A stretch of DNA of 11,131 nt, taken from the NCBI GenBank assembly GCA_040225955.1, contig JBECUL010000064.1, forward strand, positions 1 through 11,131, read 5' to 3'. The stretch is from Candidatus Asgardarchaeum abyssi (GTDB lineage: Archaea; Asgardarchaeota; Asgardarchaeia; Asgardarchaeales; Asgardarchaeaceae). The position numbers were made by a program, and so were the translations under genes. Shown one piece after another: positions 733-10,868 of the stretch. Below the pieces are notes generated by a model. That model saw nothing but the letters and a program-made list of their open reading frames with translations, was not told the DNA's origin and did not search any database. Each line of letters begins with the position of its first letter. Within the stretch, counting starts at the first letter, position 1.

Positions 733-1011
733 AATTTAGCACCCCACATAACAATAATAATGAATTACTTTAATAACTACATAAAGTATCTTTCATGCTT
801 AACCTTAAGAGTTATTTTTCACTTTAATATAAAATACCTCCTTTGGAAATTTGCCAGTACTCGAAAATTCATATATCTGCAGTATTCAAGAGACACTGTG
901 GAAATAAAATGATACAGCTTCATCTGCGGGCTCATTTTTTCTACAAATTCTTGCATTAGTGATATTTTTACTTGTTTATTATTCTCTAATTTTTAATTTT
1001 TGAAAGCCTTC

Positions 1012-1026
1012 CGAAACAGTTAAATA
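1012..1026 (+). promoter_or_regulatory. Archaeal BRE + TATA promoter of the putative ncRNA
   Basis: CGAAACAG directly followed by TTAAATA (1020-1026). Canonical spacing puts the start near 1049-1051, where the GC-rich structured block begins. Confidence 0.65.
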
Positions 1027-1049
1027 TTTGTGAGCATTTGTGAGTATTG

Positions 1050-1243
1050 AGGTAGTGTCCGAATGTGGTGGGAGTAAAGCACCGAAAGGACACCGCAATG
1101 TGAAAGGACGCCACGATGTGGGGCTTGTGGGGTTACCCTGAACGGGGTCGAGACCAATGACTTGCTCCCTATGAACCCAGAGGGAGCTGAGGCTGATGAG
1201 GCCCAAGGTGGATGTTCGCTCACCAATGCGGACATTCACTGAA
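1050..1243 (+). ncRNA. Putative structured non-coding RNA of unknown family (K-loop and box C/D-like motifs)
   Basis: About 56% GC (hand count over 1051-1240) in an AT-rich background. 5' and 3' ends pair (1054-1061/1229-1236, 1066-1070/1221-1225, 1080-1083/1207-1210, 1121-1126/1199-1204). Hairpins at 1135-1148 and 1164-1187. Several G-U pairs on the plus strand. Upstream promoter present. Confidence 0.7.
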
Positions 1244-2151
1244 CCCCGTATGTATTATAGCCATAGTCGGACTCACCATCCCAAAAAGCAAAGTATGTCC
1301 CATTGTAAAATGGATTATTCTCACATAGCTTCAGAGCTATTATTTCTGGCATCCCTCCAAAGGTCCATGCCTGTCCTTTTATGAACCACACACCATAAAT
1401 TTCACCTTGATGACTCTTATGTAGGAAAATTTCGTTTGATAAATACGGCTCTGCTGGGTTAAAATCATCTACTATTGTTTTCCAAGTATGATAATTGCTT
1501 ATGTATGTAAAAATCCTGCTCTACTGCACTCTTATTACTTGGATTTAAGTACTCATATGGTGATACAAAACTACCTTCTTCTACAATCCAAGTTTTCGGA
1601 CCATCTGTAACACGTGTATCCACCAATCCAAAATCAAACCCTGCTTCATTTCTATTAGGACCCATATCTTCGCGAGGATATCCTATTGGCTGCCCTTGTA
1701 TCACTTCATCATCTACAGAGACAGTTACATTTTTTAGGTGATCAAGATATGAGTAGATGCTATCATTATGCTGTATGACAAGATAAAAATCACCTGGCTC
1801 TCTCTCAGTTATTTGAATTCTTTTTCCATCAGCTGGAGCCATAACAACTGTTCCTTTATTTACAGAAAACCAGACATGATCTAGCCCTTCTACATGGTTC
1901 CCTCTATGTATTCCAAACTGGCCTATCCCAATGTAGCCACTATGATTTATATCGGATAATCTAACTGGCAACATTAGGTTAACGTTATTTGTTTCGGGTT
2001 CTGAAGGAACTTCAGTGGGTGGTCCTTCATGCTCTTCACCCTCATAGTCACTAAAGTGTAACATTATGAAAAGATAACTTCCTGCAATTAATAATAGTAC
2101 TAAAAATCCAAGGATAAAAATAGTCTTTTTCATAATTATTATGTAAGCCAT
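1236..2151 (-). pseudogene. Membrane-anchored M23/LytM-like peptidase-domain protein, frameshifted near 1480
   Basis: ORF 1465-2151 has an N-terminal TM/signal segment and M23 motifs (HVEGLD, VMAPADG, YLDHL, V..GQPIG). A +1 frame continues for about 80 codons (TIVDDFNPAEPYLSNEIFLHKSHQGEIYGVWF...YNTYGVQ*) to a stop at 1236-1238. Confidence 0.65.
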
Positions 2152-2274
2152 TAAAGATTATAAAATGTTTTTGCCTTCAACTATTTTAATAGAAAATAAC
2201 CATATATACATGAGATTGATTAATACTGATTTTTCTAGAATCTTTTAAGACATGAAAATAAAAAGTTAAGGACA

Positions 2275-3282
2275 TTAGAAGCCAGGTTTAGTGATCTTAG
2301 TAACCTCTTTATTCACAAGATTAGGGGGCACTTCACCTTTTGCGAATGCAATTAAGTTTTTTGCAACAAGAATTGCCATACCTTCACGAGTTTCTTTTCC
2401 AGCACTTCCGATATGAGGTGTTACAACGATGTTCTCTAATTCTAGCAGTTTTGAATCTTTTGGAAGAGGTTCCTTTTTGAAAACATCCAAAGCAGCTCCC
2501 GCTATCCATTGTTCTTTTAAGGCTGTATATAATGCATCTTCATCAACAACAGGACCTCTAGCAGTATTTATTAAATATGCTGTTGGCTTCATACTTTTAA
2601 GTTCCTTTTCACCAATTAGATGATAAGTCTCTTTAGTTAATGGAACGTGTAACGACACAACATCAGATACCTTCAAAAGTTCCTCAAGATTATAAAACTC
2701 GACACCAAGCTCTTTTTCAACATTTTCTTTTCTTATTACGTCATAATAGATTATTTTCATTCCAAAAACTTTTGCTCTTTTTGCAACCTCGTATCCTATG
2801 CCACCCATACCAACAATGCCTAGTACCTTACCCTTAAGATCCATTCCAACCATTAGGTTTGGATGCCATGCAGTTCCAAGTCTTTCCCACTCACCAGATC
2901 TTACAAATTTATCGCCCTCAACTATTCTTCTGGTTATAGCTAATATTAAGCCGATAGTTAAATCTGCTACAGACTCAGAGAGTACGCCTGGTGTATTAGT
3001 GACGTAAATTCCTTTCTCGGTACAAGCATCAACATCTATATTATCATATCCAACTGCATATTGGGCAATTATCCTTAGTTTTTTTGCATAACTAAGGAGT
3101 TCTCTATTTATCTTATCACTTAAGAGAGAAACTAAAGCGTCAATATCCTTGATTTTCTCAACGTAGACATCTCTTGGTGGTGGTTGATATTTATCCCAAA
3201 CTTCAACGTCATAATATTCAGAAATCATATCTATACCTTTTTTAGGAATTTCCCTTGCGATAAATACTTTTGGTCTAGTCAT
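2275..3282 (-). CDS. gyaR: Glyoxylate reductase (D-2-hydroxyacid dehydrogenase family)
   Basis: Strong resemblance to Thermococcales GyaR: PKVFIAREIP, AQYAVGYDNID, GIVGMGGIG (Rossmann), NTARG, LDVFKKEP, TPHIGSA, LVAKNLIAFAKGEVPPNLVN. Start moved to MTRPK (3282), which has an upstream GGTG RBS. Confidence 0.9.
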   Translation of the reverse strand: MTRPKVFIAREIPKKGIDMISEYYDVEVWDKYQPPPRDVYVEKIKDIDALVSLLSDKINRELLSYAKKLRIIAQYAVGYDNIDVDACTEKGIYVTNTPGVLSESVADLTIGLILAITRRIVEGDKFVRSGEWERLGTAWHPNLMVGMDLKGKVLGIVGMGGIGYEVAKRAKVFGMKIIYYDVIRKENVEKELGVEFYNLEELLKVSDVVSLHVPLTKETYHLIGEKELKSMKPTAYLINTARGPVVDEDALYTALKEQWIAGAALDVFKKEPLPKDSKLLELENIVVTPHIGSAGKETREGMAILVAKNLIAFAKGEVPPNLVNKEVTKITKPGF

Positions 3283-3456
3283 ATTCAACACCACTAATAA
3301 ATATTCTACATAAGAAATATAATTCTCTATCAAATATTTTAACATTATTTAATTAGAAATATGATTGTTTTTGGCTTTATTCTAAATAATTTTAATATGT
3401 TTTTTGTTGGGTATAGTTCTTCTCTTTCATATACTAAGTGATCCACCTTAGTTCTC

Positions 3457-4281
3457 TTATTTTCGTCCATTAGATATTGCGGAGATTGCATATTCATAGG
3501 TTTCAGAAGAAATTAAGTCCTTTTGAAATTTTATTTCGGCTATCGTTTTTATTGCATTAATAGTTGCTATTTCAATATCCATTCTATTCATCCAATTAGT
3601 CTCATAATTGAGAAATTCATACCAATTATCATGATAAAAAGCTTTTCTATGTTCCTCTAGTGTCCTATAGAGGATTTTGTAGCCAAATTTTTCTGGACCC
3701 TCAAACGCCATACTTCCAGGGTCCACAAATGGTGCTAAGGATGCAATGAAAGTACTTATCTTTTCAGAAACCATGTTACCAGAAAATTCTGCGGTTTTAA
3801 CAGCCGATTCGACAGTTTGCTTAGGTAAACCTATCATAAAGTAGAGATCTGTCCTTTCAAAACCTAGTTCATTGGCAATTCTTAAAAATTTCAGAAGAGT
3901 TTTTGTCAAGTAAGGCCTTCCGAATTTCTTTCTTATCTCGTCATCATGACTCTCATGAGATATCTGGAGATATATATCACCATCTAATGCCTTCCTTAAC
4001 TTTTGAAGAAACTCTTTGGATGGTGGCTCAAAAAATTCGAACATCAGTGGATTATCAACTTTTGCATCCTTGATAACATTAATGATTTCATCAGCCATCC
4101 CAGTTTGACGTAAATCCCCAACAAAGAAAATAGTTACCTTTGTGCAATCCGCTATCAGAGATACTTCTTTATAAATATCCTCTGGGCGTTTTATTGCTAA
4201 TTTCTTTCTATTAAAGAAATTCTTATAAGAGAAATTAGATACCCCGCATGTTATACAATTATATGAGCATAAATCGTATAG
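3457..4281 (-). pseudogene. 5'-truncated B12-binding/radical SAM protein (Ta0216-like family) remnant
   Basis: The frame stays open upstream of the called ATG (4098) to 4281: LYDL-CSYNCITC-GVSNFSY...KRPEDI...FFVGDLRQ. The CxxxCxxC motif starts at 4269 and an in-frame stop lies at 4282-4284, with no start codon and no B12 domain. Downstream motifs include HESHDDEIR, YFMIGLPKQT, LAPFVDPGS and LNYETNWM. Confidence 0.8.
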
Positions 4282-7966: not shown

Positions 7967-9592
7967 TTAAATTAAACTTGATGATTCTAATTGTTTCAAC
8001 TTCTTTTTACTATAAACAATAGCGAATACGATGACTGCTATGCCACCTATAATTACAGTCCATCCACCTCTATATAATACTTCATAGAGATCTATAGTGG
8101 TTGATTGTGTTTCATTCTCAGTATTTGTTACTTTTAATACTGTAAGGAGAAAAGTAACGTTTAATGAGTACCCATTGAACAAATCATCTTCATAGTAGAT
8201 TTTAATTAAGATCGGGTAAGTTCCATTGTTTACGTCACTTTTAACATAAGCATATACTGTAAATGGAACTGGAGAGTTTGCATCAACGTCACCAATATAA
8301 GTAACACTTTCAGGGGTTAGCTCAAGAATATCATTTGATATTATTGAAACATTTGTAAAGATTGCACCTATGTTACCCTTATTTAGTATAGTTGCGCTAA
8401 AAGCTACTTTCTCTCCAGGTTTTACAGGAGTTGGAATTACTGATTTTTCGTAGACAACAATTCTAATGTATCCACGAGTGACTAATCCTACACTATATGT
8501 TTCAGTGTACTCATTTCCGTAATCGTCTGAGTAACTTAGTCCTATTTGCGTTGGAAAGGTATTTCCATATGCGCCAAATGGAACATAAACTGATACTGTA
8601 ACCACAATAATATCATCAGGGGTAATGTTATAAAATGTCCATGAATTATTTCCATATATAACTAGTGGATTTGGAACAGTGTAACTCACATCAACCCGAC
8701 CATGCCATATATTATTTGAAATTGTAAAATTGATCGTATTCACAAGACCAACAGTTACATATTGGTTACTAACTTTAACCGTTGTTTTAACTTCTCTCAT
8801 AACGTTAATAGCCCATGTCCACGAAGTTGTTAAATTCCCATCTGATGCTCTGAACTCTAAGGTGTGAGAGCCCACATCTTCTTCTAACGCGGTATATATG
8901 TATGTAGTACTATTTTCTAATACCAAATCGCCATCAAAATACCATTCATAGTTCAGAGTATCATTATCTGGATCTTTGCATTTATTTACTGTAAAGTTGA
9001 CTGTTTCACCAATAAGCACATCAACAGTTCCTGAAGTAGGGTTTACAGAATAAATTACAGGTGCTCTATTGTAGATTCGTATTGGAATTAAATAGACCCT
9101 TGGTTCACCTGCAACAAAAACATTACCTACAGACACAAAGTATGTTAAAGTTAAATTATAATAATAAACACCCTTTGTTGCATTCGGATCAATATTCAAA
9201 TTAAAAGTCAATGTAAAGGAACCCATTTCAAGAATATCACCAGTTTGATTTAACACATTTCCTTGTTCAACTGGTTGAGCTGTAGCCTCGGCGGTGTAGC
9301 TTTCTGTAACGTAATCCTTAAATGGATAACTTAGATTTAATGTACCACGGACCCCTCTCAGTGTGTTATTTGATAGGTTTCTTACAAATATTGTGAGGGG
9401 AACATTGGTATCTCCTGGTGATACAGAAATTGGATAATTTTGTGGTGTACCCCATACTACGTTTTCAATTTCAAAGTCAACTGGAGGAATGGCCGCTTTT
9501 ACATGAACTTTCATATTAGTCATTAGTAATGATGTACTAAATAATGTTAGTATCAAAAATAATAGAAATAGAGAGCTAATTGTTCTTCTCAT
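7967..9592 (-). CDS. COG1361-like S-layer/Ig-fold surface glycoprotein with PKD-like domain
   Basis: Signal peptide, repeated beta-rich modules (VSPGD..LTIFVRN, PVKPGEKV..TILNKGN, GTYPILIKIYYED), NRAPVI...DPDNDTLNYEWYFDG PKD/Ig module, many N-x-S/T sequons, and a C-terminal TM followed by a KKKLK tail. Overlaps the ATPase stop. Confidence 0.8.
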   Translation of the reverse strand: MRRTISSLFLLFLILTLFSTSLLMTNMKVHVKAAIPPVDFEIENVVWGTPQNYPISVSPGDTNVPLTIFVRNLSNNTLRGVRGTLNLSYPFKDYVTESYTAEATAQPVEQGNVLNQTGDILEMGSFTLTFNLNIDPNATKGVYYYNLTLTYFVSVGNVFVAGEPRVYLIPIRIYNRAPVIYSVNPTSGTVDVLIGETVNFTVNKCKDPDNDTLNYEWYFDGDLVLENSTTYIYTALEEDVGSHTLEFRASDGNLTTSWTWAINVMREVKTTVKVSNQYVTVGLVNTINFTISNNIWHGRVDVSYTVPNPLVIYGNNSWTFYNITPDDIIVVTVSVYVPFGAYGNTFPTQIGLSYSDDYGNEYTETYSVGLVTRGYIRIVVYEKSVIPTPVKPGEKVAFSATILNKGNIGAIFTNVSIISNDILELTPESVTYIGDVDANSPVPFTVYAYVKSDVNNGTYPILIKIYYEDDLFNGYSLNVTFLLTVLKVTNTENETQSTTIDLYEVLYRGGWTVIIGGIAVIVFAIVYSKKKLKQLESSSLI

Positions 9593-10799
9593 ATTTTTCC
9601 CTCCTTATGATTTCCTCACCAATTATCATTCCATCTTTAATATGAACTATCCTATCAGCCATCTCACCAACTTCACGATCATGAGTAACGACTATTACTG
9701 TTGTACCGAACTTCTCATTCATCATTCTCAAGTAACTCATTACTTCACGCCCAGAAACAGAGTCAAGGTTTCCAGTAGGCTCGTCAGCAAGTATTATCTG
9801 CGGTGAATTTATTAATGCTCTAGCAATAGCCACTCTTTGTTGTTGCCCACCACTTAGATGCTTTGGCCTTCTATTATGAAGGCCTTCCAATCCGAGAGCT
9901 TTCAGCAATTCTAATGCTCTCTTCATTCTCTCTCTTTTAGGCATTCCTTTTATAATTGCTGGTAATTCGATATTTCTAATAACCTTTGAGCGATTGATTA
10001 AGTTAAAATTTTGAAATATAAACCCTATCTTCTCATTTCGAAATTTTGCCAGTTGATCATTATTTAAAGTACTTATGTCAATTCCATCGATAATTACTTT
10101 ACCTTCCGTAGGCTTATCTAAGGCACCAATTAAGTTTAATAAGGTAGATTTGCCTGATCCAGAAGGCCCCATTATTGCAATGAATTCACCTCTACGAACC
10201 TTTAGGTTCGCTCCCCTTAAAGCATGAACTTTTATCTCACCAACTTTGTAAACTTTGTGAACATTGATTATTTCAACTGAGTGCTCACTGTTTGATATAT
10301 AGTTTAGATTATCATTGAATTTGAGGTTCTCTATTCTTTTGATCTGTATATTCCAAGAAATTGTTTTTAATGAAAGAAAGACACCTAAAAGACTTATTAC
10401 AGATATCAAGAGAGCATGAAAAACGGTTAAAATAAGCACATCAGGCATTACAAATATCACGTATAGAAAAATTAAACTCATCAAAAACTCGACGCAACAT
10501 GCTATTAGCAATAAATGAGATAAGAAGTTATTCTTTATGTACAAACCCAAAGCACCAATAAGAAATAATGATATTGTAATTGTGCTGACACACAGTGATA
10601 CTGGTTGAGAAATAATGCTTGTTGCCCATATAAGATTGCCAGTAGTTGCTAATATTTCAATTAGAGTTAAAAAGAATGCGATAGTTAGTAATATGTTTTT
10701 TTGAAACTTATCACTTAGCATTTCCTGAGTTTTAACTCTGTGTATTGCTGGTTCTAATCCACCGCGAATTTCTAGTGAATTTGGCATTGTACTCACCAT
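9576..10799 (-). CDS. ABC transporter ATP-binding protein (LolD/MacB type) with fused N-terminal ~4-TM domain
   Basis: Walker A GPSGSGKST, signature LSGGQQQR, Walker B IILADE, H-loop VTHD. Start is uncertain: 10799 or 10721 is preferred over 10859, which lies within the promoter palindrome. Confidence 0.88.
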   Translation of the reverse strand: MVSTMPNSLEIRGGLEPAIHRVKTQEMLSDKFQKNILLTIAFFLTLIEILATTGNLIWATSIISQPVSLCVSTITISLFLIGALGLYIKNNFLSHLLLIACCVEFLMSLIFLYVIFVMPDVLILTVFHALLISVISLLGVFLSLKTISWNIQIKRIENLKFNDNLNYISNSEHSVEIINVHKVYKVGEIKVHALRGANLKVRRGEFIAIMGPSGSGKSTLLNLIGALDKPTEGKVIIDGIDISTLNNDQLAKFRNEKIGFIFQNFNLINRSKVIRNIELPAIIKGMPKRERMKRALELLKALGLEGLHNRRPKHLSGGQQQRVAIARALINSPQIILADEPTGNLDSVSGREVMSYLRMMNEKFGTTVIVVTHDREVGEMADRIVHIKDGMIIGEEIIRREKYEKNN

Positions 10800-10868
10800 T
10801 TTGTGCATTAATGCATATCTATGAATATATTCAATATTGGGTTTATAAATTTTGTGCATTAATGCACA
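10798..10868 (-). promoter_or_regulatory. ABC operon promoter: TATA box between two palindromic operator-like sites
   Basis: TGTGCATTAATGCACA (10853-10868, perfect 16-bp palindrome) and TGTGCATTAATGCATA (10802-10817) flank TTTATAAA (10842-10849). Confidence 0.7.

Follow-up and report, generated by a model that had tools for sequence, protein, structure and literature searches.

The window, i.e. the whole 11,131-nucleotide stretch of Candidatus Asgardarchaeum abyssi DNA that was analysed, contains a GC-rich island with a minus-strand gene on either side, one encoding an M23 peptidase and the other being a 162-codon ORF without a Pfam match. The GC content was 55.9% over positions 1046–1247 compared to 27% and 39% in the flanks and 34% in the genome, and values of at least 55% occur in only 0.11% of the 200-nt genome windows. 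An earlier note had pointed out this island, and its description of the sequence was partly confirmed. A BRE/TATA-like box is located at 1012–1027, the octamer GAAAGGAC is present at 1084 and 1102, and the plus strand folds better than shuffled sequences (z = −3.09, and −3.29 for 1046–1247), compared to z = −1.25 for the minus strand. Likewise, no recognised family was detected in the window by an Rfam scan, nor any tRNA or tmRNA by ARAGORN. RNase P and SRP RNA were considered and rejected: neither matched in the window, and the genuine genes are located elsewhere in the genome, at C8 and C79.

The remainder of the window displays some further peculiarities. The same repeat of about 195 bp occurs in inverted orientation at both contig ends (1–198 and 10934–11131); it has 25 matches in the genome, many of them at contig ends, and is probably the end of another collapsed mobile element. 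The radical-SAM ORF at 3345–4098 (213 codons) lacks the N-terminal half of the domain; a short ORF downstream overlaps it, and the gene may be truncated or frameshifted. An ABC ATPase (9576–10859) with an unusual hydrophobic N-terminal extension of about 190 residues sits in a MacB/FtsX transporter cluster together with an Ig/PKD surface protein.

The island almost certainly belongs to a gene-less mini-transposon of the IS607 family that occupies positions 1007–1247. The features assigned to it, in part by comparison with complete tnpA-tnpB elements (parents), are as follows.

1006–1008, plus strand: target site and predicted TAM, GCC, with the CC core dinucleotide; from left-end counts and from single-GCC joins that restore ORFs in 6/6 copies.
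1007–1247, plus strand: non-autonomous IS607 mini-element, bounded by a CC core on the left and on the right; the 16 complete copies share sharp ends but not their flanks, and the same ends enclose tnpA-tnpB in L049, L052, L053 and L056.
1012–1027, plus strand: BRE/TATA-like box, putative tnpA promoter of the parent; located about 35–40 nt upstream of the tnpA start codon in five full elements.
1029–1048, plus strand: left-end direct repeats TGAGC/TGAGT in 10-bp phase, predicted TnpA-binding motifs; the motif covaries with its inverted right-end copy and with the TnpA helix-turn-helix across subfamilies.
1052–1096, plus strand: 5' hairpin from tnpB zinc-finger (CPxCGG) codons; matches tnpB of L034, 94% paired, with double-sided change in 7/13 pairs in 23 homologs.
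1097–1115, plus strand: subfamily-specific insert with the second GAAAGGAC; missing from the 219–225-bp copies, as judged by copy alignment and lengths.
1119–1140, plus strand: helix 1119–1123/1136–1140, whose loop bears the pseudoknot strand 1129–1134; compensatory GUGG/CCAC variants in L088, L094 and L116, with variable loop inserts.
1145–1204, plus strand: core RNA domain with helices 1145–1149/1200–1204, 1152–1155/1191–1194 and 1164–1169/1182–1187; supported by covariation.
Bulge 1156–1158 with GA 1159–1160/GA 1189–1190, plus strand: K-turn in the core domain; tandem GA/GA in 24/30 homologs.
1170–1181, plus strand: K-loop in the core domain; tandem GA/GA in 23/30 homologs.
1208–1239, plus strand: right-end terminal hairpin, which holds the inverted left-end motif GCTCA (1218–1222); double-sided change in 9/12 pairs.
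1242–1247, plus strand: 3' end of the scaffold and right end of the transposon, pairing with 1129–1134 in a pseudoknot-like manner; 96% paired, 2/6 pairs covary.
1248–1267, plus strand: predicted guide in host flanking DNA, different in every copy; role assigned by analogy to known TnpB systems.

Copies, ends and parent elements

Similarity searches yielded 18 long matches to the window element, dispersed over its own genome. Sixteen copies were complete, with sizes of 219–243 bp, identities of 81–99%, sharp ends and unrelated flanks. The complete copies start at GCC and nearly all of them finish in ACCCC, and in the copy alignment conservation stops at the CCCC end. Additional copies were found at different sites on related metagenome contigs, and the element family occurs in 8 of the 301 genomes of the phylum, while a search of viral contigs with the core pattern gave no match. 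One copy, at locus L043, has a length of just 108 bp and is devoid of most of the RNA, indicating that copies can exist without it. Two other assemblies of the window locus (L059 and L060) carry the element as well; a search for true empty alleles found none, and within the own genome a join at the level of paralogs was the only empty-site-like join observed. The feature that the earlier note had placed at 1012–1247 is thus real; its true extent, however, is 1007–1247, and its multicopy and mobile nature had been missed.

Six copies sit within genes. When the element was removed and one GCC was kept, the longest open frame was obtained in all six cases, and such restoration worked by the single-GCC join only; one of the six rejoined proteins aligned without gaps with four paralogs. 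A search pattern that itself requires GC retrieved left ends with GC in 20/20 and GCC in 18/20 cases, and among rows picked by BLAST, GC was present at the left in 18/19, the exception lacking a left end. On the plus strand, CC is found at either end of the element as well as in the reconstructed targets; read from tnpA to tnpB, the core is CC and not GG. The element ends, GCCT... and ...ACCCC, are not inverted, no terminal inverted repeats are present, and the insertion sites display no target duplication beyond the dinucleotide core. Insertion takes place at GCC with a CC core, and removal is scarless. The absence of terminal inverted repeats and of target duplication, a dinucleotide core and short phased end motifs are the published behaviour of IS607 (PMC6188088).

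The interrupted genes are located at C55 414–656 and C144 1918–2141, and on C9, C39, C61 and C110. Named from sequence likeness, that on C55 is a probable HepT/DUF86-like toxin-antitoxin gene and that on C144 a probable methyltransferase gene. Two further copies, at C14 44372–44505 and C24 ~873–970, are inserted a few bases from the ends of other repeats of about 134 and 100 bp, which have 6 and 12 matches, respectively.

The phased end motifs are TGAGC/GCTCA in the window copy and in L049. L050, L052, L053 and L056 carry TAGAC repeats instead, with GTCTA at the right end where that end is present. Between subfamilies, the left-end motif, its inverted right-end copy and the helix-turn-helix of TnpA change together. 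Phased motifs inside the ends are the TnpA-binding sites expected for IS607 (PMC6188088).

In Candidatus Baldrarchaeum yapensis, a member of the same phylum, both ends enclose 2.7 kb encoding TnpA and TnpB (L034/L049). This TnpA is a MerR-HTH serine recombinase that matched NF033518 with 244 bits (cut-off 110), and the TnpB matched PF07282 and PF01385 above the cut-offs. Bins of Thermoproteota and Archaeoglobales contain comparable elements, which are either complete or truncated at contig ends. Aligned to the parent, the window copy shows three matching blocks, namely the left end, part of the zinc-finger codons of tnpB and the final 120 nt, which identifies it as a double internal deletion. 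The element descends by two internal deletions from an element encoding a serine-recombinase TnpA and a TnpB, and it has retained the left end with the putative tnpA promoter, the hairpin from the zinc-finger codons and the right-end RNA. The box at 1012–1027 lies 35–40 nt upstream of the tnpA start in five parents, indicating that it is the tnpA promoter, and in the mini-element it directly precedes the RNA. Thus, structured plus-strand sequence does follow a promoter box as the earlier note had proposed for an independent RNA gene, but it is multicopy and the promoter is that of tnpA. A protein-coding role was rejected: stops occur in all three plus frames, and the likeness of one frame to the TnpB zinc finger and of another to the TnpB C-terminal tail represents remnants.

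The own assembly contains a single full tnpA (C44), which has a different left end and a Tyr at the position of the Ser in the YxRVS motif, the catalytic residue of serine-recombinase TnpA proteins. No intact cognate TnpB and no active cognate TnpA were found in a search of this assembly, and the two own-genome TnpBs with matching RNA architecture (C97 and C135) are contig-edge fragments. The assembly consists of 189 pieces, and complete elements present in many copies frequently drop out, so that absence of an intact partner from the assembly does not equal absence from the genome.

Several related elements were noted. The own genome carries other IS607-type families (C44 117–735, C97 1–445, C135, C61 3587–3740, C11, C188 and C1 3765–5104). 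One of these families has the left end GCCTA, the right end AGACCCC, an RNA that fits the same model and deleted derivatives of its own, and the element at C1 3765–5104 encodes a canonical DRD TnpB with a short HTH-like ORF upstream. Many genomes of Thermoproteota and Asgard archaea harbour gene-less minis belonging to related IS607 families (L080, L084, L085, L091, L092, L094, L096, L102, L106, L107, L136, L036, L038 and L098), with a GCC start wherever a left end was seen and the zinc-finger hairpin kept in some. In the Baldrarchaeum element, an insert of about 840 nt (L049 3558–4410, equal to L034 5216–6082) separates the RuvC-III codons of tnpB from the core of the right-end RNA; it encodes a LAGLIDADG-like and HTH ORF (PF14528 slightly below the cut-off) and has GATG at both junctions. 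L051 (near 1479; 2185–3030) contains an ORF 92% identical to that of this insert and a second insertion within tnpB. The insert is possibly an archaeal intron or a homing endonuclease gene inside a transposon guide RNA. Finally, at L054 ~716–772 and L057 ~2824–2877 the zinc-finger hairpin has its interior inverted between the inverted-repeat arms, and tnpB is broken; this was seen in two unrelated bins and is either a real inversion or an assembly artefact.

Conserved fold of the right-end RNA

Covariation, proposed in the earlier note as a check, was determined on 30 homologous right ends. Since related sequences inflate the shuffle control, we relied on a control with slid partners and on pair types. 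In the local fold, 90% of the cells were paired and 21 of 33 pairs had changed on both sides, compared to 31–51% paired with slid partners, and RNAalifold proposed largely the same helices unaided. The homologs hence do covary. The 5' hairpin includes a third-codon position with five pair types; its outer part is weak in the short subfamily. Because helix 1119–1123/1136–1140 closes the loop that holds 1129–1134, the pairing of this strand with the 3' end forms a pseudoknot. A third K-turn-like site displayed the pattern in only 8/30 homologs and is not conserved. Scanning the window and seven parent loci against Rfam gave nothing significant; the RNA family is absent from Rfam and can now be modelled.

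This fold differs in part from the one that had been drawn from the single sequence. The hairpin GCUCCC/GGGAGC was correct, but the hairpin ACCCU/GGGGU was only 76% paired with little covariation and is not conserved. The complementary segments of the proposed long rod exist as well; it is not the end-to-end rod, however, that is conserved. The pair probability of the rod was 0.001 at 37°C as compared to 0.94–1.0 for the local hairpins, while the energy model favours the rod at 70–80°C (0.61–0.74). The outer rod pairs can form at 10–13 of 13 positions in the window subfamily but only at 3–8 of 13 in parents and other minis, in which 7–12 of 12 pairs of the terminal hairpin can form. Rod formation would exclude two covarying hairpins, and the rod is at most a lineage-specific alternative.

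Predicted role as a TnpB guide RNA and alternative explanations

In the parents, the homologous RNA overlaps the 3' end of tnpB and terminates at the right end of the transposon, with variable host DNA following. Based on this position and on its structure, we conclude that the RNA is in all likelihood a TnpB omega-RNA scaffold. The overall reading, an IS607-family mini-transposon that encodes no protein but carries a TnpB omega-RNA, is very likely; whether the window copy is at present transcribed and used in trans appears evenly balanced to us.

Such an element would function as follows. TnpA made elsewhere would bind the phased end motifs, excise the element as a circle and reinsert it at GCC. 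From the tnpA promoter, which directly precedes the 5' hairpin, transcription would begin near 1045–1050 and continue past the right end for about 20 nt into the flanking DNA. The scaffold would be bound by a compatible TnpB encoded elsewhere, probably along with host L7Ae at the K-turn and the K-loop. This TnpB would recognise GCC plus flank, the sequence of the empty site that excision leaves behind, and would spare the CCCC end of the element, which has no G at −3. A cut at the empty site would be repaired from the filled sister chromosome, restoring the copy. No other GCC-adjacent target was found in the genome for the copy flanks (best match with 6 mismatches in 20), so that each guide would address its own empty site only.

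Individual steps have been described for other elements. In the IS607-type CboIStron, excision of a circle by TnpA creates a precise joint, the TAM of TnpB equals the target of TnpA, and the base at −3 prevents self-cutting (PMC10690162). The same target and TAM arithmetic would fit the window element, with GCC as the target and CCCC as its own end. Action in trans is known for stand-alone omega-RNAs, and gene-less PATE-like elements that carry omega-RNA have been published (PMC10691335; PMC10055086).

The main alternative shares the mini-IS607 identity and differs on RNA use alone. Here, the element is a passive MITE-like remnant that moves with TnpA in trans; the RNA fold was inherited from the parent and is no longer used, and the hairpins were retained since deletions stop at hairpins and the ends are required at the DNA level. 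We do not favour this explanation but consider it a serious possibility. It is consistent with the lack of an intact cognate TnpB or active TnpA in the assembly and with the 108-bp copy without the core RNA. Against it, nearly all copies have an intact promoter box, K-turn and K-loop, and alleles that break pairs are depleted among copies (7 vs. 13.2 expected, P = 0.008). For the internal RNA part alone, depletion was weak (5 vs. 9.1 expected, P = 0.03; P = 0.10 for the selection signal without the most decayed copy), as would be expected of a remnant. Evidence from other genomes likewise points in both directions. Independent minis in several of them also keep the left end, the zinc-finger hairpin and the right-end RNA, in a set biased by having been found via the RNA core. 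In several separate lineages the zinc-finger hairpin is kept as an island between two deletions, which argues against passive retention, but it is absent from about half of the minis in other genomes.

A second alternative concerns the activity of TnpB. In the aligned parent TnpBs, Gln occupies the position of ISDra2 D361, the RuvC-III Asp and third catalytic Asp of that TnpB, in 15/15 sequences and likewise in C97/C135. DNA cutting is therefore not assured, and the RNA may guide a TnpB that nicks or does not cut at all; instead of introducing a double-strand break, such a TnpB would bind the empty site or repress nearby DNA, or would help TnpA to find the site. However, we regard this as unlikely. 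The RuvC-I Asp and the RuvC-II Glu are invariant in the parent TnpBs, and although they lack the canonical D-E-D RuvC triad, an extra invariant Asp occurs 7 residues past the RuvC-I Asp that is missing from two canonical TnpBs of the own genome. This combination is expected of a rearranged active site. TnpB branches with a rearranged RuvC-III are known, some of them nearly restricted to archaea, and conserved rearrangements of this kind are argued to retain activity (PMC10691335). Judging by its residues, the parent TnpB clade would fit such a branch.

The own genome contains L7Ae-family genes, and the K-turn together with the K-loop suggests binding of L7Ae. The omega-RNA of this clade may even need host L7Ae as a third subunit, along with a TnpB whose third catalytic Asp has moved, and the minis may represent naturally minimised, self-promoted guide cassettes keeping exactly the RNA modules needed by TnpB; we put this forward tentatively, as a doubtful proposition. 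A literature search of limited coverage revealed no paper on a K-turn- or L7Ae-dependent TnpB guide, which is weak evidence of novelty.

The new host-encoded ncRNA/RNP class with a promoter of its own that had been proposed from the sequence is, as stated, already refuted, and any such explanation is highly improbable. The GC island, the folding z-score, the promoter box, the covariation and the lack of an Rfam match would agree with it. However, the feature is a dispersed, multicopy, internal-deletion derivative of an IS607 tnpA-tnpB element that has sharp transposon ends, inserts into genes and occurs in only 8/301 phylum genomes, and its closest homologs lie at the 3' end of tnpB or within IS607 ends. 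There is scarcely any likelihood that the RNA is an atypical box C/D methylation guide: it has a box C-like word (1193–1199), a box D-like word (1239–1242), the K-turn and the K-loop, but the 11 nt before the terminal CUGA are without a perfect antisense target outside the copies and are locked in the covarying terminal hairpin, no Rfam C/D match was obtained, the context is mobile, and neither single-stranded guides antisense to rRNA or tRNA before D/D' nor a C'/D' pair were found. Y RNA, vault RNA, hammerhead and 6S RNA had motif likeness only and were dropped given the mobile context and the lack of Rfam support.

Relation to known systems

With the element identified, a candidate 'new archaeal RNA class' is removed, and gene-less IS607 elements can underlie orphan promoter-bearing GC islands in genomes of Asgard archaea and Thermoproteota. 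The mini copies shape the host genome by breaking genes. By natural deletion, the minis mark the parts of the scaffold that matter (about 200 nt), and they point to GCC as the target motif of a TnpB clade whose active site is altered and which is probably thermostable. Should L7Ae be required, a transposon guide RNA would rely on a host protein common to box C/D and H/ACA guide RNPs.

The element most closely resembles the IS607 family (IS607, IS1535 and ISC1926; PMC6188088) and CboIStron (PMC10690162). As in these, the parent encodes a MerR-HTH serine recombinase TnpA and a TnpB, terminal inverted repeats are absent while short phased motifs lie within the ends, the dinucleotide core is left once in the empty site, the RNA stops at the right end, and the target motif and the own right end differ at position −3. 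In contrast to the GG of the studied IS607 elements, the core in tnpA-to-tnpB direction is CC, and the target is GCC. The window copy is furthermore gene-less, intron-less and archaeal, and in the parent TnpB the RuvC-III Asp is replaced by Gln.

Similar to stand-alone omega-RNAs and PATE-like IS200/IS605 elements (PMC10691335; PMC10055086), the window element is gene-less, mobilised and multicopy; it also shares with them the retention of both ends and the omega-RNA and a predicted use in trans. It is derived, however, from an IS607 element (serine recombinase, dsDNA) and not from IS200/IS605 (Y1 HUH transposase), and it keeps a tnpB-internal hairpin fused to the tnpA promoter, with activity in trans being predicted here. 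The reRNA of RAGATH-18-type IS607 TnpB (ISFba1; PMC11061315) has a scaffold of similar size with stem-loops and pseudoknots, and its guide is the 3' flank as well; the RNA described here differs in sequence, target motif and lack of an Rfam match to RAGATH-18 or to any other family, and conserves a C/D-type K-turn and a K-loop. Haloarchaeal sotRNAs (PMC4615843) and the SisTnpB1 omega-RNA (10.1101/2023.03.06.531077) are also structured RNAs overlapping the 3' end of an archaeal tnpB, but unlike the window RNA they belong to IS200/IS605 elements (SisTnpB1 TAM TTTAA).
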